Below are positions 11,537-59,248 of a stretch of 64,000 nucleotides of DNA, one piece after another. Made by a program: the position numbers and the translations under genes. Under the pieces are notes generated by a model. That model ran no database searches, was not told the DNA's origin, and saw only the letters and a list, made by a program, of their open reading frames with translations. Source of the stretch: a virus. Location of the stretch: positions 1-64,000 of IMG/VR virus record IMGVR_UViG_3300050821_003463. One strand, 5' to 3'. Each line of letters opens with the position of its first letter. Position 1 is the first letter of the stretch.

Positions 11537-11950
11537 ATGAAGACACGAGCCTTGATCGAGCAGGATCACCCTGCGTTGCAAGCGGCGATTGACTCGGACA
11601 CCTTTCATCCAGGAGAATGGTCGGTCGATGACTTTATCCAAGACTCGCTGAGCGAAAATCCCCAGCATAAAATCCCCAAGGTGTGCACGGTAGTAGAGGA
11701 CTCCCAAGGTCCGATTATCTTCGTTCGATTTACCAAGACGCTGCGTATCTGTTGTGTCTGGAATGATGAAGCAGACAATCATCGCAATGCTCGTGCGCTT
11801 GTCTTTGGCATGCGTGACGCGGTGAAGATGGCGCGAGCGAATGGGTTCACCGAGATCATCGTTCAATCAGACCACAAGAAATTGGCAACGTTCCTAACAG
11901 AAGTACTGAAGATGAAGCAGAGCGGCAGCGAGTTTTTACTCGCAGTGTAA
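11537..11950 (+). CDS. GNAT-fold-like protein preceding the internal virion genes
   Basis: 137 aa; VVEDSQGPIIFVRF and ARANGFTEIIV patterns; same position as T7 gp13-like genes. Confidence 0.4.
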   Translation: MKTRALIEQDHPALQAAIDSDTFHPGEWSVDDFIQDSLSENPQHKIPKVCTVVEDSQGPIIFVRFTKTLRICCVWNDEADNHRNARALVFGMRDAVKMARANGFTEIIVQSDHKKLATFLTEVLKMKQSGSEFLLAV

Positions 11951-11960
11951 AGGATATCAC

Positions 11961-12716
11961 ATGTGCGTCAGTAGCGGGCTTAAGGCTCTAAACAATACGG
12001 TCAAAGGTGCTCTGAGTTCCGCCCAGAGCGAAGCCTCATCAGTCTTCGGTGCAGCCAGCACTGTCTTCAATAACCTGATCAGCGGAATTCAACAGGTTGT
12101 AACGGGCGGACCTAGTCAGGCGGGCTTTGGCGCGGCTGAGCTTAATGCCAAGAACGCAGCGGCAGTCCAGGCGGGCGCGACGATGGCGCGTAACCTCGGC
12201 GGCGCAGCGGCGACGAGCGCGGCGGCACTTGGCGGCGGCAACGCGGTCGAACCGGCAGGCGGGACACAGGCGGCGATTCTCGCGGCTAAGACAGCAGCAG
12301 CAGAACAGACCGCGACGACTGAGAATCAGATTCAAACTGAGAATTTTGAGCAGGGCAATAAGAATTACGAAGCAGCGGTCGGGCAAGAGATGCAGTTGCC
12401 CAACGTGTTTAATCCTGCGACCTCATCCGAAGGACAGGTTAACGCGGCGGCAAATACCGCTACGAACGTCCAGAAAGAAATGGACACTCAATCGAATTGG
12501 TGGCAACCGATGGTCACGGCGGCAATCGGCGGCGCATCCAGCATGTTGACAGGCGGACTGACAAGTGGTATAGGTGGTGGAGGGCTTCCCGCGTCCGATT
12601 CAGGGACGTACGGCGCAGCCCCTTTCGTGGGCAGTGGTCAACCCACTCCGAGTGCAATGCCTGCCCCTAACATGACAGGACAATTCGGTAGTTCCCCGTT
12701 TCCAACAGGCATCTAA
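11961..12716 (+). CDS. internal virion / ejection protein (small)
   Basis: A/G/Q-rich helical sequence with hydrophobic G/A segments; gene order. Confidence 0.6.
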   Translation: MCVSSGLKALNNTVKGALSSAQSEASSVFGAASTVFNNLISGIQQVVTGGPSQAGFGAAELNAKNAAAVQAGATMARNLGGAAATSAAALGGGNAVEPAGGTQAAILAAKTAAAEQTATTENQIQTENFEQGNKNYEAAVGQEMQLPNVFNPATSSEGQVNAAANTATNVQKEMDTQSNWWQPMVTAAIGGASSMLTGGLTSGIGGGGLPASDSGTYGAAPFVGSGQPTPSAMPAPNMTGQFGSSPFPTGI

Positions 12717-49711: not shown

Positions 49712-49924
49712 TCACCGGAAGTGCCTTCCTGTCTTCGGCGCGGAGGGGATTGGCTTCTTCGCCGTCAGACGATACGTAAGATAGTTAGACGGCTGAGGCA
49801 CGACGATTGAGAAAACTTCCCAACCATCCTGTGCCCACTCGTTGCACGCTTGCTGTATCTTGTCGGGTTGCGTCCAACTGTCGACATTGTTTACGACTAT
49901 GCGCGAACGGAATTCATATGTCAT
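49712..49924 (-). CDS. DUF4177-like protein ending TGRHFR
   Basis: YEFR...NEWAQDGWEVFSIV pattern. Confidence 0.6.
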   Translation of the reverse strand: MTYEFRSRIVVNNVDSWTQPDKIQQACNEWAQDGWEVFSIVVPQPSNYLTYRLTAKKPIPSAPKTGRHFR

Positions 49925-50952
49925 CGAAATTTTCTCCCAGTGGTAAAAAGGGGCTTGCTCGCACCAGCCGGTAACGCTGGCGTGCCCGCCGCTGCCTGCT
50001 GTCGAAGGAACTTCTGGAACGCTTCCTGCTGATCTTCCGGCATCAGCGCGACCGGCGCAGCGCTCGGCTTGACGCCTTCTGATAGCATGACCTTCAGGAT
50101 GTGCTTACACTCTGTACGTGGGGAGTGCTGCGTAAAGTTAGGGCACGAGCAAGCCCAGCCCTCAGCCGTTGTCGAGCCCTTCGGATTCACAGTGCGACTG
50201 ACCACGTAGGGTGCCTTCGCCGTGCCTTGCACAGTCCACTGCGTTGTCCACATCGGGGAGTTCGACTTCGGCAGTTTTCGCACCTCACCGTTCTTCATCG
50301 GAGGTGTGACCTTCTTTACCTTCACGAAAGACGGCTTTACGTGATCTTCGATATTCACAGTTCCCTTTCCGCTGCAGGCAGGGCAATGCGTGCCCGACCA
50401 GTCTGCCTGATTGTGATACAGATTGCAACCGAGACAGCGCACGACAGCGTACTCTATCTTCGGTCCAAAGACTTGCGCCCAGCTTTTAATTTTCTGAGAA
50501 ACCTGCTCCACCGTAGTCGGCGCAGTGATCGTGTCGCCCCACTTCTCGTACTTCCACATCGGCTTGCCGTCTTCGAGCACTCCACCTGAAGTGTCATTGA
50601 GCGCGCGCCGATAGTAGCCCTTCAGGTTGCTGTGGATGGGAACTGTAGGTTTTTCTTCCATCGCGTCCGCGTTATCCCAGATACCGGTTATGTCTTTCTG
50701 GAACGGAGACGCATAGTGGATGGGGTGTTTCGACAGCGGTATCCTGGGCGTCTCGTTCGTTATGGTCTTGACCTTCTTGCCGCACTTCGTGCAAGTGAAA
50801 ACTATCTTGGTGCCCGCCCAGTCTGCTGCGCCCACCGTGTTGAAGTGCGCGCACTTTGCCTGCTCAACGCGACAGGATGAGCATAGCCCGTCCCCGTGGG
50901 GAAAGTCTTCCGTATGGGTCGCGCACTTCGAGCAGTTGACTTTTGCCATCAC
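49921..50952 (-). CDS. multi-Zn-finger protein with SWIM domain, ending TGRKFR
   Basis: Several CxxC motifs; WACSCPNF...CKHI. Confidence 0.75.
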   Translation of the reverse strand: MMAKVNCSKCATHTEDFPHGDGLCSSCRVEQAKCAHFNTVGAADWAGTKIVFTCTKCGKKVKTITNETPRIPLSKHPIHYASPFQKDITGIWDNADAMEEKPTVPIHSNLKGYYRRALNDTSGGVLEDGKPMWKYEKWGDTITAPTTVEQVSQKIKSWAQVFGPKIEYAVVRCLGCNLYHNQADWSGTHCPACSGKGTVNIEDHVKPSFVKVKKVTPPMKNGEVRKLPKSNSPMWTTQWTVQGTAKAPYVVSRTVNPKGSTTAEGWACSCPNFTQHSPRTECKHILKVMLSEGVKPSAAPVALMPEDQQEAFQKFLRQQAAAGTPALPAGASKPLFTTGRKFR

Positions 50953-54017: not shown

Positions 54018-54449
54018 TCACCGCACCTCCTGATCGAGCAGATGGTTGACGATGATTGCCTTGCCCTTCGCGATGCAGCCAGGGCACGTCACAACCCAGG
54101 TATCCAAGTAGCAGCGGGTCACTGCGCCAGCCTTAGCACAGAGCGTGCTGCCTTCCTGGATAACGTGGCTGTTGGTTTCGACATCGTACGCGCTGGTGTT
54201 CAGGATGTGAAAGTGATGCTCCCCTGCGACCAGCACCGTATTGAACGGCAGAAGCTTCTGCACGTCTCCGTCTGCGATGCTGCGTTTGAGTACCTCGCGC
54301 TCCAGCCGATCAAAGTCAAGTATGATTAGCGTTGCCGTGGGTGTGAGTAAGTCGACGCTTGGGTCGACAACGTCAAACGTGGTGGATGCCTTGGCGAGCG
54401 CTGCTCGAAGTTCAGACTGGCGCAAAGCTTGATATTGAAATTCGTTCAT
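54018..54449 (-). CDS. hypothetical protein with C-terminal Zn motif
   Basis: H...LC...VTCPGC. Confidence 0.6.
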   Translation of the reverse strand: MNEFQYQALRQSELRAALAKASTTFDVVDPSVDLLTPTATLIILDFDRLEREVLKRSIADGDVQKLLPFNTVLVAGEHHFHILNTSAYDVETNSHVIQEGSTLCAKAGAVTRCYLDTWVVTCPGCIAKGKAIIVNHLLDQEVR

Positions 54450-54790
54450 AGGGTTACCTTTCGCTTGGCGAGTTCCGCCAAAAGTTCGAACGTTGAAAAA
54501 TTTTTCAGAGTCTTTCGTCCCTTCGGATGCCTCTGGTTTTTAATGCTCTGCCTGCGGGTTGCCCACCGTACGTTGCCTACAGCATAATGCCCATCGTTTT
54601 CAATTCGGTCAAGCATGCGACGTGAGGGGCGTTTGCCGAGTTCTGCGAAGAACTCCTCGAATGAGGTGAACAGGAATTTTATTCCCCGTCCACCATAATT
54701 CGGGAAGTCTGTGCAATTCGGATTCGTGCAACGATTACGAGCATCGTAGTAAGCCCGCCATTCGACGGGGTGTGTCTTGTAGGGTTTCAT
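54446..54790 (-). CDS. HNH-like endonuclease
   Basis: RC.NP...NYGGRGI, LDRIENDGHY..GNVRWAT. Confidence 0.8.
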   Translation of the reverse strand: MKPYKTHPVEWRAYYDARNRCTNPNCTDFPNYGGRGIKFLFTSFEEFFAELGKRPSRRMLDRIENDGHYAVGNVRWATRRQSIKNQRHPKGRKTLKNFSTFELLAELAKRKVTL

Positions 54791-54792
54791 GT

Positions 54793-55008
54793 TTACTGCT
54801 TCAGCGTGTTCTTGTGCTGAGCAGGCTTGTTGAATTCACCCTTGTGTGTGACCTTCACGGTTTGCCCGATTGCATTCCCGAAAGCCTGTGCGACTGCGTC
54901 GCAGCCTTTGCCCTGGTACCCATTCAGGTCTACCGTTTGGTCGCCGGTGGCGATGTCAATGTTGATGGTGATTATCTTAGCCAAAGTGCCCTCACTTTCG
55001 GTTGTCAA
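54793..55008 (-). CDS. DUF2997-like protein
   Basis: ITINID..G...VDLNGYQGKGC....F..AIG. Confidence 0.75.
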   Translation of the reverse strand: MTTESEGTLAKIITINIDIATGDQTVDLNGYQGKGCDAVAQAFGNAIGQTVKVTHKGEFNKPAQHKNTLKQ

Positions 55009-55399
55009 TGAATTGGAGTTGAACTTTCCCGTTGACGATCTTCTTGCCGAGGAACTGCAGACCGTTCTTGCGCGCGGTCTTCATGTCCACCTTCTCGGTA
55101 TACGCGACCTTCAGTTTCGTCATCCAGGTAGCGTCGTGCTTGTTGCTATCGTAGTCGCTGACGATTGCGCTGTAGGTCCCGTCCGCTGCTTTGACAAAGC
55201 CGAGATCGTTCGCTGCGCTACCTATGTGCTGGCGGCGCACGATGACGTTGGCTGTCTGTGCTCGCTTGTCGCCGTGATAGCCGAACAAGTTCTGTGCGAC
55301 TTCGTTCACTTCCACGTTCTTGTAGCCCATCTCACCAAGGGCTTCGACAAGACAGTCGCGATCTTTGTACTGTGTCTTCTGTGTGTGGTATGCGCTCAT
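54992..55399 (-). CDS. DUF1257 (Ycf35)-like protein
   Basis: MSAY...T..KD...LVEAL.EMG, DLGF....DG.Y..IVSDYD. Confidence 0.8.
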   Translation of the reverse strand: MSAYHTQKTQYKDRDCLVEALGEMGYKNVEVNEVAQNLFGYHGDKRAQTANVIVRRQHIGSAANDLGFVKAADGTYSAIVSDYDSNKHDATWMTKLKVAYTEKVDMKTARKNGLQFLGKKIVNGKVQLQFIDNRK

Positions 55400-55674: not shown

Positions 55675-56133
55675 TCATAGTGTCCTCTCAGCAAAGAATT
55701 TATTGAGGAAGGCGATCTCCGCACTGATAGCTGCTTGTCTGTCGTGCGTCGTGAACGTCCGGTGATCCATCCACGCAGCGACGGGCGACGGTGCGACATG
55801 CTCCCAGGTTAGAACAGGTCCGCCGACAGGGGACGTATCGACTCGCCACTCGCATGCCCACGTTCGTGTCCACGCTGCGACCTTGCTCGTGTCGCTGGAG
55901 AGTATACGAAGTAGATTGAAGGCGAGACGCAGTAGCCAGCCTGCGGGTTCTACGTGCGACGCGCGCTTCGTGATCACCTCTCCGAGTTCGAGGAAGCAAT
56001 CTGCGCTGTCGGTCTTCAGGAAGACTTGGTCACCATTCTCATCTATCGTGACGGTGATAATCTTGTGCGCTGGAATCGGGAACGTCTTGGGATATCGCGC
56101 GTCGTACCCTTCAGGTTTTGAGATGTGCTTCAC
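55675..56133 (-). CDS. conserved-type protein with RASHVEP and WxVDxSPVGGP motifs
   Basis: Motifs recalled from small proteins that accompany DUF1257/DUF2997 operons. Confidence 0.6.
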   Translation of the reverse strand: MKHISKPEGYDARYPKTFPIPAHKIITVTIDENGDQVFLKTDSADCFLELGEVITKRASHVEPAGWLLRLAFNLLRILSSDTSKVAAWTRTWACEWRVDTSPVGGPVLTWEHVAPSPVAAWMDHRTFTTHDRQAAISAEIAFLNKFFAERTL

Positions 56134-56192: not shown

Positions 56193-57104
56193 CTAGCGAA
56201 ACTTTCTGCCAGAGGTGATAACCATCGTCTTCAGTTCAGCGCGTACGCCTTCGAGTTGAGAGATGACGTACTGTTGAAGGTTGCCCGACTCTTTCAGGCG
56301 TTCGACCGTGACACCCTGCATCGCGTTCTTCACGACTTGCATGTTCTTCATGAAGTCCACGTCGTTCGCGAGATCACGATCAGGCAGCGTGTCGAGGAAC
56401 TCTTGCAGGTGCTCGACGTGACAGCCGTACATCTTCTTCGTCTTGCCCGCTTCAGGCTTGAGCATCGCGAAGAGTGCGTCGACCATCTCAGCACCAGCCA
56501 AGCGCATCGCATCGCGCCACTCGATAACAGCCTGCATGCGGATGCTGCGTTCCTTCTCCTGCTCACGGGCGATAATGATATCGCTCATGCCGGTGAGGTT
56601 CACGCTGCCGACGTTGCGGTAGTTGAACTCCAGAACGAAGCCAGCCTCTACTGTGTCGCTCGCTGGATAGTCGCTCCGGTCAAAGTTCTCAGCAAGAACC
56701 TCGCGCAGCGGTTGAAAGTCTACCGCTTCGAGTTCCCTGTACTTCGTCATGAACGCCTCGACTAACTTGGGGCGTCGAATCGTCTGGTATGCGACGATGG
56801 CGCGGTCCACTTCGTTCAGCCACTTGCGCGGAAGGAAGCGCGTTGCCTCGCGATACCAGCATGACTTGGACTCGACGTAGCGCTTCAGGAAGCCGTCCTG
56901 TGAGCGAATCTCTTCGAGTTCGGGTGAGTCCATCAGGCGTTTCTGGTGACGCAGTTCACTCGCCTGTGTAGCGGTTTCGACTTTCAGATTCTTGATCTGG
57001 CGCATGCGACCGATGCCCATGCGGAAGTTGATGGTGATTGAGACGCAGCTTTCAGTCTTGCTCAGGTCAACGTTCGCGACGGGTGCCACTGCGGGTGATG
57101 CCAT
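56193..57104 (-). CDS. DUF3150-like protein ending SGRKFR
   Basis: K.L.D...L, FLP, FDRSDYP, F...F pattern; operon context; GGGAG RBS. Confidence 0.6.
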   Translation of the reverse strand: MASPAVAPVANVDLSKTESCVSITINFRMGIGRMRQIKNLKVETATQASELRHQKRLMDSPELEEIRSQDGFLKRYVESKSCWYREATRFLPRKWLNEVDRAIVAYQTIRRPKLVEAFMTKYRELEAVDFQPLREVLAENFDRSDYPASDTVEAGFVLEFNYRNVGSVNLTGMSDIIIAREQEKERSIRMQAVIEWRDAMRLAGAEMVDALFAMLKPEAGKTKKMYGCHVEHLQEFLDTLPDRDLANDVDFMKNMQVVKNAMQGVTVERLKESGNLQQYVISQLEGVRAELKTMVITSGRKFR

Positions 57105-57246
57105 TTTATTTTCTCCCATAAGAAGTTTGTGGCGCGATTTATTTTGTGACTACGTCGCGCCGTCGGTCAGCCTGAGCCGCCGTGCTTACTGCGACTTCAG
57201 TTCACTACAGTTTAACGTCATGGAGTGAGCGTATGGACGGTTGCTA

Positions 57247-58797
57247 CTACCGCATCTTGCGTCCTTCCGTTATCTTCACGGTCGGCGCGTGCTTGGTTGC
57301 GGGTGGAGTGTACTTGTAGACGCCCTGGTTAGATGCCGACAGGAAGCGGTCGGTAGCTCCAGCGCGTAGCACCTCCATCTCTTCTTTATGACTGGTCATC
57401 AGAGGGATGATGTATTGACCAGCATCTTCCAGCGTGACGCGCATCTTCCGCGCCTTGTTAGCGCAGTTCTTGATGTCGCGCCCAGTCCAGCCCGTCATGT
57501 CGGGGTAGGTCTGTGCGGGGAGTTTGTTCGCTGTAACTTTCAGGTCCATGATGCCCTTCTTCTCTTCGTCGTTCGGCGCATCAAAGAAGAAGATGTCAGC
57601 GAAGCGGGAGAGCAGTTCGGGCGGTAGACCGTCCAGTTTGTTTGCGGTTGCGATGAGCCACACGCGACCGTCGCTAATGGATTGCACGGTGTGATTCGCG
57701 CTCACCATGTTTTTGTTCGAGTTGCCAACCAGTGAGTCTTGCATTTTTGAGATGCTGTAGTCGATGACTGGCTTGTCGAACTCACCAGCGATGCAGTCGA
57801 TGCTGTGCGACTTAGACGAGCCCGGTACACCCAGGAACAACGAGCAGTAGATGTCGTTATCGTTCACCCAGGTCAGCCACTCGCCAAGTAGGTCACCCTT
57901 GACGCCGCTGCTGTCGGTGTCGTTCCCTGAGAACTGGCGTTGTATCTCATCCATCCTCAGAATCACGGTGGGTGATTGCTCACCAGTCATCAGCTTGCGA
58001 CCGTATGCCTTGATCGATTCAACCCCGTACAGGTCCTTCAACTTCAGACCACCTGCGCGGTAGGTCAAACCTTTCTGCTGGGAGACGATAGTCTTCTTGC
58101 GAAGCCACAGCGTCTCGATATCCAAAATGCCCTTCGCTTTGTCCAAGCACATCGCAGTCGCCTGCTCTGCTGGGAAGAGAGGGATTCCGATGAGTGCGTC
58201 AACAGCGTTCAAGACTACCGCTTCACTCGGTCCAGCCTTGCACGCTGCGTACTTCACTTTGTCACTCGCGTATGCGTACGCGTATGTCTCGCGGACGATT
58301 GCTGCGAGTTCAGCGCGCGTCGGCAGTGGATGCTCTAGCACCAGCGTGTCTTGCTGCAACACGACTGGGATGCTGTCACCGATTCCGAGGAGTAGCACGC
58401 ACATGTTACCGCGCGCCTTGTAATCGTTGCGCAGATTGGCAACACCCTGGATGACTTTCTTGTCATCGTCCCAGGTGAGCTGCGGATTGAGGATGAATGC
58501 GAGGACATCTTCCTGCGCTGCTTCGAGGATGCCAAGCGCGATGGGCAGGTCAACCGATGCGCCGACTTCCATGCCGCTCTCGCTCGCCATCTTCTGTAGA
58601 GCGCTCGTGCCAGCGTCTGTAAGCCCGCGTAGCCCGTGGATGCTGTCCCAGGCTATGAAGGGGGTGACCTCTGCGAGTTCAGCGCCCAGCGAAGCCTGTA
58701 TCGTCGTAATGGTCGACGTAGGATCGAAGGTGCGGATAGCGACGGTCGGGGTCGATACCGCGCGTGCGTCAGTGAACATCTCAATGAATGACTTCAT
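57247..58797 (-). CDS. Ycf46-like AAA+ ATPase with permuted Walker B/Walker A order, ending EGRKMR
   Basis: Ycf46-like N domain (WD...GL, LP...EL); ILRMDEI upstream of FLGVPGSSKS; then LIATAN, LPPELLSRF, FFFDAP, GWTGRDI. Confidence 0.85.
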   Translation of the reverse strand: MKSFIEMFTDARAVSTPTVAIRTFDPTSTITTIQASLGAELAEVTPFIAWDSIHGLRGLTDAGTSALQKMASESGMEVGASVDLPIALGILEAAQEDVLAFILNPQLTWDDDKKVIQGVANLRNDYKARGNMCVLLLGIGDSIPVVLQQDTLVLEHPLPTRAELAAIVRETYAYAYASDKVKYAACKAGPSEAVVLNAVDALIGIPLFPAEQATAMCLDKAKGILDIETLWLRKKTIVSQQKGLTYRAGGLKLKDLYGVESIKAYGRKLMTGEQSPTVILRMDEIQRQFSGNDTDSSGVKGDLLGEWLTWVNDNDIYCSLFLGVPGSSKSHSIDCIAGEFDKPVIDYSISKMQDSLVGNSNKNMVSANHTVQSISDGRVWLIATANKLDGLPPELLSRFADIFFFDAPNDEEKKGIMDLKVTANKLPAQTYPDMTGWTGRDIKNCANKARKMRVTLEDAGQYIIPLMTSHKEEMEVLRAGATDRFLSASNQGVYKYTPPATKHAPTVKITEGRKMR

Positions 58798-58999
58798 GTT
58801 ATTTTCTCCTCCGAGTAGGCCAGTAGTGATCCGCGAGTCCGTTCAAGGAACTCACCGTGAGATACAGTACCGCCAGAAATCCTATCGTGTGCATGGTGTG
58901 CTCCTGTTGACGTAGTCGCTTCGCGCAACACTCGGCTCAGGATTTTCGCAGGAGCAATAATTGCACGAGTGCTGCGCGAGGCAACTGCCTCGCTGTCGG

Positions 59000-59248
59000 T
59001 TAGAGTTCTTCGAGTCGAGGTGCGGTGCGATACACCAGACCGGGGGTGAGCCGTTCTTTGAACGCGGCATCATCCAGCGCACTCTGCCAGCGCGACCAGT
59101 CATCAGGCCACGCGCCCCACAGTGTCCAGCGCGTGACTGCGTTCTTGCAAGCGGTGAGCACTGCGCCGTAGCCTTTTTTCTCGGCGCGGGTGAGTGCTGC
59201 CTTTAATTTCGGTCCCTCTTGTTTCGCGAGTGCGTAGTCGATTGGCAT
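59000..59248 (-). CDS. hypothetical protein
   Basis: AGGAG RBS; WGAWPDDWSRW. Confidence 0.65.
   Translation of the reverse strand: MPIDYALAKQEGPKLKAALTRAEKKGYGAVLTACKNAVTRWTLWGAWPDDWSRWQSALDDAAFKERLTPGLVYRTAPRLEEL

Follow-up and report, generated by a model that had tools for sequence, protein, structure and literature searches.

A soil phage gene on the minus strand of the window (the whole 64,000-nucleotide stretch of DNA that was analyzed, positions 1 to 64,000 of the IMG/VR record IMGVR_UViG_3300050821_003463) encodes an AAA+ ATPase in which a 41-residue piece bearing the Walker B motif lies ahead of the piece bearing Walker A, and this arrangement is confirmed. The reading that we favor, with a probability of roughly 85%, is that the product is a two-tier Ycf46-like AAA+ protein with an inactive D1-like N-terminal domain and an active D2 domain in which two neighboring segments have been exchanged, and in which the fold has most likely remained unchanged.

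Gene and Domain Layout

The canonical order of the AAA motifs is Walker A, pore loop 1, Walker B, and sensor 1. The open reading frame at 57247..58797 encodes 516 amino acids, with no internal stop, and its Walker B motif precedes the P-loop lysine by 46 residues, which breaks the collinearity of Walker A, Walker B, and sensor 1. The first-pass annotation had described Walker B as preceding Walker A within a single intact frame, and both the positions of the motifs and the integrity of the 516-residue frame bear this out. The features of the gene are as follows.

57247..58797, minus strand: whole gene, stop codon included, for the two-tier AAA+ protein (P0001), with a family of at least 270 full-length homologues
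58078..58797, minus strand: residues 1–240, degenerate D1-like AAA+ domain with an alpha/beta core and a helical lid, the P-loop lysine being absent
57973..58077, minus strand: residues 241–275, linker and helix alpha0, in which DLYGVESIK is the counterpart of the DIGGLxxLK box, running up to the relocated strand
57850..57972, minus strand: block B, residues 276–316, with strand beta3' (278–282), Walker B, pore loop 2 (DSSG), and helix alpha3 (299–313)
57946..57951, minus strand: Walker B acids D283 and E284, within the strand TVILRMDEI (residues 277–285)
57667..57849, minus strand: block C, residues 317–377, with beta1, the P-loop, alpha1, beta2, pore loop 1, and alpha2
57808..57831, minus strand: Walker A, GVPGSSKS, residues 323–330
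57724..57735, minus strand: core of pore loop 1, S-L-V-G, residues 355–358
57523..57666, minus strand: block D, residues 378–425, with beta4 carrying sensor 1, the second region of homology LPPELLSRF, and beta5
57640..57642, minus strand: N386 of sensor 1, in LIATAN
57604..57606, minus strand: arginine finger R398, in LPPELLSRF
57298..57522, minus strand: residues 426–500, helical lid subdomain, in which R440 occupies the sensor-2 position
57250..57264, minus strand: C-terminal tail, G-R-K-M-R

Block Homology and Profile Matches

Relatives with the normal order include gp65 of the Aeromonas phage HJ05 (OQ594355.1) and an "AAA family ATPase" of a Ca. Manganitrophus plasmid (CP114562.1), in which the motifs run from Walker A through pore loop 1 and Walker B to sensor 1, whereas the 41-residue Walker B block comes first in the present protein. 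Residues 276–316 align to residues 350–389 of HJ05 gp65 (Walker B and the following helix), residues 317–377 align to 297–350 (the P-loop to helix 2), and residue 378 onward aligns to 392 onward. Comparison by BLASTP with the normal-order plasmid homologue leaves two reciprocal gaps of approximately 41 residues, precisely at the positions of the blocks. Two adjacent blocks had been proposed at first pass to be swapped in a non-circular manner, and the homology of the blocks, together with these gaps and the collinear termini, sustains that proposal. In a circular permutation the termini would be displaced, but here both termini, the N-terminal domain, helix 0, the strand 4–strand 5 segment, and the lid are all collinear with the normal-order relatives, and for this reason the alignments identify the permutation as non-circular, with just two internal neighboring blocks exchanged.

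A profile built from 119 normal-order relatives recovers the native protein in four pieces, out of order. The N-terminal domain is collinear (residues 3–185 to profile positions 17–194, the match reaching approximately 274 in other members of the family), and is followed by residues 274–315 at positions 351–392, residues 321–375 at positions 298–352, and residues 376–423 at positions 392–441. The out-of-order partial matches are those foreseen in the first reading of the gene, as is the effect of swapping the two blocks in silico, which yields a single collinear match of residues 279–423 to positions 297–441. This swap improves the score of the normal-order profile in all 270 family members, by a mean of 35.6 bits. 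The control rearrangements give the results that would be predicted: moving block B to other places changes the score by −0.4 or −0.9 bits, deleting it costs 10 bits, and restoring the junction between blocks B and D alone gains 18 bits. Similarly, full-length collinear alignment to the Ycf46-like ATPases of the same gene module fails with the native protein, and is obtained only after the block swap.

The curated profiles recognize the protein only in fragments, again as anticipated. The Pfam AAA profile (PF00004) matches residues 320–365 only, at positions 2–47 of 131, and its score of 32.8 bits passes the gathering cutoff of 21.2 on the Walker A half alone, whereas it covers positions 1–129 of 131 in HJ05 gp65, with 97 bits. 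None of the NCBIfam families matches the permuted protein, whereas a normal-order relative matches 15 of them. Such proteins are thus labeled "hypothetical", or receive partial AAA hits, because the Walker blocks are swapped.

Conservation and Possible Origin of the Permuted Family

The Walker-B-first order is found in all 120 close homologues and in all 270 aligned family members, a set that includes the best 150 representatives of the 50%-identity clusters, as well as gp103 of Tunturi 3, a cultured phage of Tunturiibacter. The order is thus shared across the family far beyond chance. Given that the record is a metagenome-assembled virus genome, the order might in principle have been produced by chimeric assembly, by a rearrangement confined to one metagenome assembly, or by the merging of two genes in annotation, but the reading frame is intact, and the same order recurs in a sequenced phage isolate and across numerous independent assemblies, in 270 proteins altogether. 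A Logan contig is identical over 57000–59000, at a word depth of 17, although it represents a second assembler applied to what is probably the source soil run, and is hence no independent sample. Misassembly, which the first-pass annotation had named as a finding that would overturn its reading, is excluded on these grounds, and an artifact of assembly or annotation is scarcely credible.

The catalytic positions are retained throughout the family. Among the 270 members, E284 is invariant, and position 283 is D in 263 and E in the other seven. Each of the Walker A residues G323, G326, K329, and S/T330 is retained in 269, as are N386 of sensor 1 and the arginine finger R398, while pore loop 1 retains V357 in 251 members and G358 in 268. 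In the linker and helix 0 region, G258 is kept in 267 members, and R513, in the C-terminal tail, in 243. The arginine at the sensor-2 position, R440, alternates with R397 across the family. The description of Walker A (GSSKS) as atypical holds in part. A serine replaces the glycine before the lysine, at a position that varies across the family (S in 130 members, G in 95 members, and A in 36 members), and the lysine and the S/T that follows it are almost always kept.

These data also bear on the possibility that the upstream hydrophobic-D-E sequence is not a working Walker B, in which case the protein would be a pseudo-ATPase, which lost its Walker B by deletion and now binds ATP, without hydrolyzing it, as a scaffold or switch. 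Such a protein would be expected to have no hhhhDE motif between Walker A and sensor 1, and there is none in this protein or its close homologues; the slightly atypical P-loop points the same way. However, the upstream block has its homologue in the canonical Walker B unit, with its pore loop 2 and helix 3, and is worth about 10 bits by itself and about 35 bits once put back in its usual place. The acids that it carries are conserved in every one of the 270 members (allowing D or E at 283), and the sensor-1 asparagine and the arginine finger, which are relevant only to hydrolysis, are kept almost without exception, which makes the loss of catalysis very improbable. The active D2 of the preferred reading would thus have a rewired core which keeps all its catalytic residues family-wide, and which is apparently functional, judging by this conservation.

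A profile of the permuted family gathers 1,235 cluster representatives at E ≤ 1e-30, whereas, with a profile of this kind, the nearest of the available normal-order proteins reach 1.6e-19 at best. In the phylogenetic tree, the 107 permuted sequences lie on one side of a single long branch, which has a support of 1.0, and the 70 normal-order sequences lie on the other. Given the narrow sample of normal-order sequences in this tree, a single origin of the permuted lineage is proposed provisionally. Non-circular permutations are rare, and their formation needs either duplication followed by deletions or the transposition of a segment. A regular expression flagged two sequences for an additional D-E immediately ahead of sensor 1, and these were considered as possible duplication intermediates and rejected, given that the flagged D-E pairs are matches at the junction of helix 2 and strand 4, and that the upstream D-E is present in the alignment of both. 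The species genomes of GTDB provide a single match to the family, on an 8-kb contig of a metagenome-assembled genome, and the search of plasmids recovers normal-order relatives only, with no permuted member.

Predicted Structure and Covariation

The ATPase had been supposed at first reading to be rewired but probably folded, and the AlphaFold2 predictions are in keeping with this. The model of this protein is a confident AAA fold (pLDDT 90.2, pTM 0.82), and that of a member with 36% identity is more confident still (pLDDT 95.3, pTM 0.90). In both, the D2 domain contains exactly five strands, which follow one another along the chain as Walker B, Walker A, strand 2, sensor 1, and strand 5, and block B is modeled at a pLDDT of about 86–95, with the exception of the pore loop.

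The overall fold of both tiers is that of the type II proteins p97/VCP/Cdc48, NVL/Rix7, and Pex1/6 (Z 14.9–17.3 over about 400 residues), with the whole model matching p97/Cdc48 D1–D2 at Z 17.3 over 397 residues. The D2 domain matches p97-type domains and the single-tier Vps4, spastin, and katanin at Z 15–16, with an rmsd of 2.6–3.6 over about 200 residues, including p97 D2 (Z 15.5, rmsd 2.8 over 198 residues), Vps4 (Z 16.1, rmsd 3.6 over 213 residues), and spastin (Z 16.3, rmsd 2.9 over 204 residues). The N-terminal domain alone matches modules of RFC, Rubisco activase, and NSF-D2 (Z 9.8–10.8). Sequential structure aligners cover only about 190–223 of the roughly 250 D2 residues, a partial coverage which is expected for a permutation, and is no proof of one. 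The search of solved structures by sequence finds only marginal matches (E 0.15–0.7), to the sensor-1 and lid part of bacterial Trip13-like ATPases and Msp1. In BFVD, there is no member of the permuted family, the best identity being 15%, and the viral structures that match best belong to phage proteins with the name "ycf46".

Covariation was analyzed by mean-field direct coupling analysis (DCA) of the top 2L couplings, at an effective depth (Neff) of only 187, and is not independent of the AlphaFold2 input. Between strands, there are four couplings for beta3'–beta4, three each for beta1–beta4 and beta1–beta5, and one for beta3'–beta2, with none among the top 2L for beta1–beta2, beta2–beta4, or beta3'–beta5. 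Helix 3 and helix 2 share 17 couplings, and helix 3 with pore loop 2 shares 21 with pore loop 1, whose core covaries with pore loop 2 and with the beginning of helix 3. The register of the couplings L280–L381 and I279–W380 places E284 beside A385 and N386. These counts fit, if indirectly, a sheet in the order 5-1-4-3-2, in which strands 4 and 2 would flank the Walker B strand, an order that is suggested by the secondary structure, the fold matches, and the covariation taken together.

An arrangement in which the relocated strand–helix unit completes the core of a neighboring subunit, as a three-dimensional domain swap, with the ring held together by exchanged Walker B segments, appears improbable. 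The order of the chain alone does not distinguish docking in cis from docking in trans, but the end of helix 3 (residue 313) and the start of strand 1 (residue 317) are separated by three residues, and the length of this junction is constant in 267 of the 270 members (that of the junction of helix 2 to strand 4 being constant in 239). So short and fixed a junction would tether the block at the base of the P-loop strand in the same chain. The monomer models place block B at a pLDDT of about 90–95, and docking in cis predicts the couplings that link it to helix 2, strand 4, and pore loop 1, although, in formal terms, cis and trans cannot be told apart by covariation. The prediction of a homodimer, from two copies of residues 2–498, scored 0.00, which carries no weight for or against.

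Proposed Mechanism

For ATP hydrolysis, the assembly of a ring, the substrate, the biological role, and the three-dimensional positions of the strands, we infer the following, on the preferred reading of a D2 domain with two exchanged segments. The 41-residue unit that runs from strand 3 through Walker B and pore loop 2 to helix 3 is now encoded ahead of the 61-residue unit that runs from strand 1 through the P-loop, helix 1, strand 2, and pore loop 1 to helix 2, and the fold is most likely retained, with only three connections changed. Helix 0 would enter strand 3 rather than strand 1, helix 3 would lead into strand 1 rather than the neighboring strand 4, and helix 2 would lead into strand 4 rather than the neighboring strand 3. 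In these three new connections, the helices are predicted to lie on their usual face of the sheet, with right-handed crossovers kept. K329 and S330 would bind ATP-Mg, and D283 and E284, at the end of the relocated strand and beside N386 of sensor 1, would activate the water. R398 may act in trans from the neighboring subunit of a putative ring, and pore loops 1 and 2 may line the central channel and pull a polypeptide substrate.

Comparison with Known Systems

The protein shares with the classic AAA proteins the Walker A and B motifs, the sensor-1 asparagine, the arginine of the second region of homology, and two pore loops. It differs from the type II unfoldases and from the single-tier Vps4, spastin, and katanin in having only 12–21% identity to them, a D1 without nucleotide-binding motifs, a D2 with rewired connectivity, and no cofactor domains. 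Like the normal-order ATPases of its module, it combines a D1-like N-terminal domain with an active classic AAA module, and has the same C-terminal lid, and every block of its sequence is homologous to theirs. The circularly permuted P-loop GTPases of the YlqF/YjeQ/YqeH type have the motif order G4-G1-G3, and retain their fold and activity, and they provide a precedent in nature for P-loop NTPases with a non-canonical order of motifs. In these GTPases, the N- and C-terminal parts are exchanged, whereas here the termini are unchanged, and the internal blocks are swapped within an AAA+ (ASCE) core.

The search of the literature for permuted AAA or P-loop proteins, or for Walker B preceding Walker A, found no paper, and we know of no earlier non-circular rewiring of the ASCE P-loop core. 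The paper on the Tunturi viruses does not discuss the ATPase. The family is quite probably a mainly phage-borne lineage of about a thousand clusters (at 50% identity), in which a non-circular permutation of the AAA+ core arose once, with full catalytic competence, and which the curated profiles do not see. The connectivity of the AAA+/ASCE core has been held to be invariant in classification, profile models, and mechanistic thinking, and the permuted family would break with this, showing that the AAA+ fold tolerates a non-circular permutation. If the new tether between helix 3 with pore loop 2 and the P-loop strand also alters the coupling of the nucleotide state to the grip on the substrate, the family would represent an experiment of nature in AAA+ allostery. 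With a profile made for this family, more than a thousand clusters would be recovered, and gp103 of Tunturi 3, on Tunturiibacter psychrotolerans, would provide a cultured system for experiments.

Gene Neighborhood

The ATPase gene shares a module of AAA, DUF1257, DUF2997, and DUF3150-like genes with its normal-order relatives. The neighboring genes of the window are as follows.

56193..57119, minus strand: DUF3150-like protein of 308 residues, ending in GRKFR
55675..56133, minus strand: protein of 152 residues, conserved beside the ATPase in seven related loci
54992..55399, minus strand: DUF1257 (Ycf35-like) protein (Pfam PF06868, E 3.9e-9)
54793..55008, minus strand: DUF2997-like protein of 71 residues (weak match to Pfam PF11211, E 0.011, below the threshold)

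The 308-residue protein lies beside the ATPase in nine of the 13 related full-length loci checked, and shows weak similarity to a protein annotated as DUF3150 (E 6e-4); neither it nor the 152-residue protein matches Pfam or PHROGs. DUF1257 also adjoins Tunturi 3 gp103, HJ05 gp65, and the ATPase of the Manganitrophus plasmid, and a clear DUF2997 is found at the equivalent position in all three. The papers found to mention DUF1257 or DUF2997 give no function for them. Membership of a defense system was considered and rejected, the weak partial matches of PADLOC to IetA/TRIP13 (E 1e-4 to 4e-3), in single blocks, being attributable to generic AAA similarity.

Within this module, the ATPase would probably act as a protein remodeler or unfoldase early in infection. 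The occurrence of permuted and normal-order sisters in the same kind of module may provide a natural test of the part played by the helix 3–strand 4 and helix 2–strand 3 connections in the coupling of ATP hydrolysis to the pore loops. The two groups also differ at the C-terminus, the RK[FM]R tail being absent from the 119 HJ05-like proteins. Tails like GRKMR also end three other proteins of the window.

Motif order and block homology

P0001, the 516-aa Ycf46-like AAA+ protein, is encoded by an intact open reading frame on the minus strand (57247-58797) of a complete, uncultivated virus of 94.5 kb; the window has 55% G+C. Its translation reproduces exactly the coordinates and the motif order reported in the first-pass annotation, with Walker B ahead of Walker A.

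Motifs of P0001 (minus strand), in order of translation
aa 255-263: DLYGVESIK box
nt 57946-57951 (D-E): Walker B strand TVILRMDEI, ending in D283-E284
between Walker B and the P-loop: DSSG loop, then a helix ending in LLGEWLTWVND
aa 323-330, nt 57808-57831: P-loop GVPGSSKS
after the P-loop, before sensor 1: short strand, SLVG pore loop, long helix
after the long helix: sensor 1 LIATAN, with N386
after sensor 1: PPELLSRF, with R398

A relative with the normal order (Walker A, pore loop 1, Walker B, sensor 1), gp65 of the Aeromonas phage HJ05, was found in the phage collection. Local alignment pairs P0001 276-316 (block B: Walker B, pore loop 2, and helix 3) with gp65 350-389, P0001 317-377 (P-loop to helix 2) with gp65 297-350, and P0001 378 onward with gp65 392 onward. 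The normal-order homologue of the Ca. Manganitrophus plasmid is collinear with P0001 from residue 17 to 489 in BLASTP, save for two reciprocal gaps of approximately 41 residues each, one facing the upstream block of P0001 and the other facing the Walker B block of the plasmid protein itself, which is the signature of one moved segment.

The profile and block-swap check proposed in the earlier annotation gave the anticipated result when run against a profile of 119 normal-order proteins. Native P0001 matches in four pieces, at the out-of-order profile positions 17-194, 351-392, 298-352, and 392-441, and exchanging the two blocks in silico turns the core into one collinear match of 89.7 bits. 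Several other members of the permuted family (Walker B block before Walker A) give a single full-length match once exchanged, and the swap raises the score in 270/270 family sequences, by a mean of 35.6 bits. In the controls, which behaved as expected, the change was -0.9 bits when block B was placed behind strand 5, -0.4 bits when it was placed ahead of helix 0, -10 bits when it was removed, and +18 bits when only the junction between block B and sensor 1 was restored.

Conservation and extent of the family

A word-indexed search recovered 367 homologues of P0001, of which the best 120 are full length, with 52-85% identity, and all carry the D-E pair approximately 46 residues ahead of the P-loop. 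The 50%-identity cluster representatives matched in an exhaustive profile search number 6,821 at E<=1e-3, of which 1,235 pass E<=1e-30; each of the top 150 is matched full length by a single hit. Because the permuted-family profile, at the same database size, scores even the nearest normal-order proteins compared at E 1.6e-19 at best, most of these 1,235 representatives are probably permuted.

In a joint alignment of 270 family sequences, E284 is invariant (270/270), position 283 holds D in 263 sequences and E in the other seven, and each of K329, S/T330, N386, and R398 is retained in 269. The lengths of the new junctions are nearly fixed, between helix 3 and strand 1 in 267/270 sequences and between helix 2 and strand 4 in 239/270.

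The permuted order is neither an artefact nor a one-off. A soil metagenome is the only sequencing run found to contain the window sequence, and a Logan contig of the probable source run, from another assembler rather than an independent sample, has zero differences over 57000-59000. The same order is present in gp103 of Tunturi 3, a cultured podovirus infecting Tunturiibacter, which is annotated only as 'ATPase' and whose gene is not discussed in the Tunturi 3 paper.

The arrangement is missed by curated libraries. The Pfam AAA profile covers positions 2-47 in P0001, whereas it covers 1-129 in HJ05 gp65, and the NCBIfam families matched number zero and 15, respectively. PHROGs assign P0001 to families of unknown function, and the nearest BFVD structures are only normal-order 'ycf46' phage proteins.

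Predicted fold and position of the moved strand

The AlphaFold2 models of P0001 (mean pLDDT 90.2, pTM 0.82; 49-sequence alignment) and of a 36%-identical member (pLDDT 95.3, pTM 0.90; 78-sequence alignment) share one D2 order, that is, helix 0; the Walker B strand, a short helix, a flexible loop, and helix 3; the P-loop strand, helix 1, strand 2, and helix 2; and the sensor 1 strand, strand 5, and the lid, with exactly five core strands in both. The D2 of P0001 alone aligns with p97 D2 (Z 15.5, rmsd 2.8, 198 residues) and Vps4 (Z 16.1), and an exhaustive comparison of the second model with 48,161 PDB representatives is headed by spastin, Vps4, NVL, Rix7, Pex1/6, and FtsH. Of some 250 residues in D2, sequential aligners place at most ~190-223, as would be predicted for a moved block of 41 residues, although this is not proof.

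The entire P0001 model matches the D1-D2 tandem of p97/Cdc48 (rmsd 4.6 over 397 residues, Z 17.3), and its N-terminal 230 residues alone match other AAA+ modules (Z 9.8-10.8); P0001 is thus predicted to be a two-tier AAA+ protein with a degenerate first tier. Residues 1-240 (window 58078-58797) form an AAA+-like alpha/beta and lid module without the P-loop lysine, and because of this, such 'Ycf46-like' proteins would be p97-like two-tier proteins in which the first tier is dead.

Mean-field direct couplings were derived from 268 usable family sequences (Neff 187), with the top 2L counted; this evidence is modest, given the few sequences and its use of the same signal as AlphaFold2. Strand beta3', the relocated strand, has four couplings with beta4 and one with beta2, and beta1 has three each with beta4 and beta5. 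The next-but-one pairs beta3'-beta1 and beta4-beta5 have two and one, and zero couplings were found in this set for beta1-beta2, beta2-beta4, beta2-beta5, and beta3'-beta5. This pattern modestly favors a 5-1-4-3-2 sheet, the canonical order, in which the moved strand takes position 3. The register is fixed by the couplings L280-L381 and I279-W380, which put E284 beside A385/N386, the usual arrangement of an AAA+ active site. Helix 3 is coupled to helix 2 in 17 pairs, and helix 3 and pore loop 2 to pore loop 1 in 21, which appears to match the canonical fold and agrees with the AlphaFold2 models, at the same modest strength.

Judged from textbook AAA+ topology, helix 3 would now run into strand 1 rather than the adjacent strand 4, and helix 2 into strand 4 rather than the adjacent strand 3. 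The rewiring would be conservative, since neither helix is moved to the other face of the sheet.

The observation is confirmed: motif order, homology, conservation, and predicted fold support the original reading, and P0001 is a classic AAA+ module in which the internal, non-circular permutation is conserved; we infer its activity, its assembly, the placement of the block in cis, and its biological role.

Evolution and precedents

When the blocks are restored before tree building, a single branch of length 1.9 with support 1.0 splits 107 permuted from 70 normal-order proteins, which is consistent with a single origin of the permutation, from a narrow normal-order sample. Intermediates carrying the Walker B block twice were not seen. 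No account of a permuted AAA+ core turned up in phrase searches of the paper library. Circularly permuted GTPases are a known precedent for the reordering of P-loop motifs, but represent another kind of event in another class.

Gene neighborhood and possible role

Genes downstream of the ATPase (minus strand)
56193-57119: 308-aa protein, weakly DUF3150-like (E 6e-4 to annotated DUF3150)
152-aa protein
DUF1257 protein (E 3.9e-9)
DUF2997-like gene (weak)

By tblastn, Tunturi 3 and related viral contigs also carry these neighbors next to the permuted ATPase. The normal-order ATPase module contains DUF1257 and DUF2997 in HJ05, and DUF1257, DUF2997, and DUF3150 in the Manganitrophus plasmid. The permuted protein occupies the slot of its normal-order relatives, which argues for the same job. 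The papers searched treat these domains as uncharacterised, and the best inference is that, early in infection, an ATP-driven ring acting with the small partners of the module would thread or remodel a protein substrate.

In the plasmid (CP114562.1, 2702-8169), the module lies between a JAB-domain protein and a Fic-family protein, which could be a hint to its biology. Directly downstream of the DUF2997-like gene, a 114-aa open reading frame (54446-54790, minus strand) is kept at the same position in two related viral contigs, with 71% identity in L006 and 41% in L011. The tblastn match of the 308-aa protein in Tunturi 3 is gp96 (11690-12649 of that genome; 23% identity, E 3e-11), for which the label 'HNH endonuclease' may be wrong.

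Arginine pattern and C-terminal tail

Position 397, adjoining the arginine finger R398 (aa 397-398, nt 57604-57609), and position 440, which is the sensor-2 site of the lid (nt 57476-57478), form the strongest direct coupling of the family. They are occupied as (S,R) in 140 of the 270 sequences, (R,A) in 102, and (R,R) in none, and this either-or pattern suggests that one phosphate-contacting arginine has switched sides at the active site, between trans and cis.

A G-R-K/H-F/M-R tail ends four otherwise unrelated proteins of the window.

Proteins with the tail (minus strand)
49712-49924: KTGRHFR
49921-50952: TTGRKFR
56193-57119: TSGRKFR
57247-58797: TEGRKMR

The tail is absent from the 119 HJ05-like normal-order proteins, and within the ATPase family 243/270 sequences retain its arginine, R513. 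It may serve these proteins as a common tag for docking or recognition.
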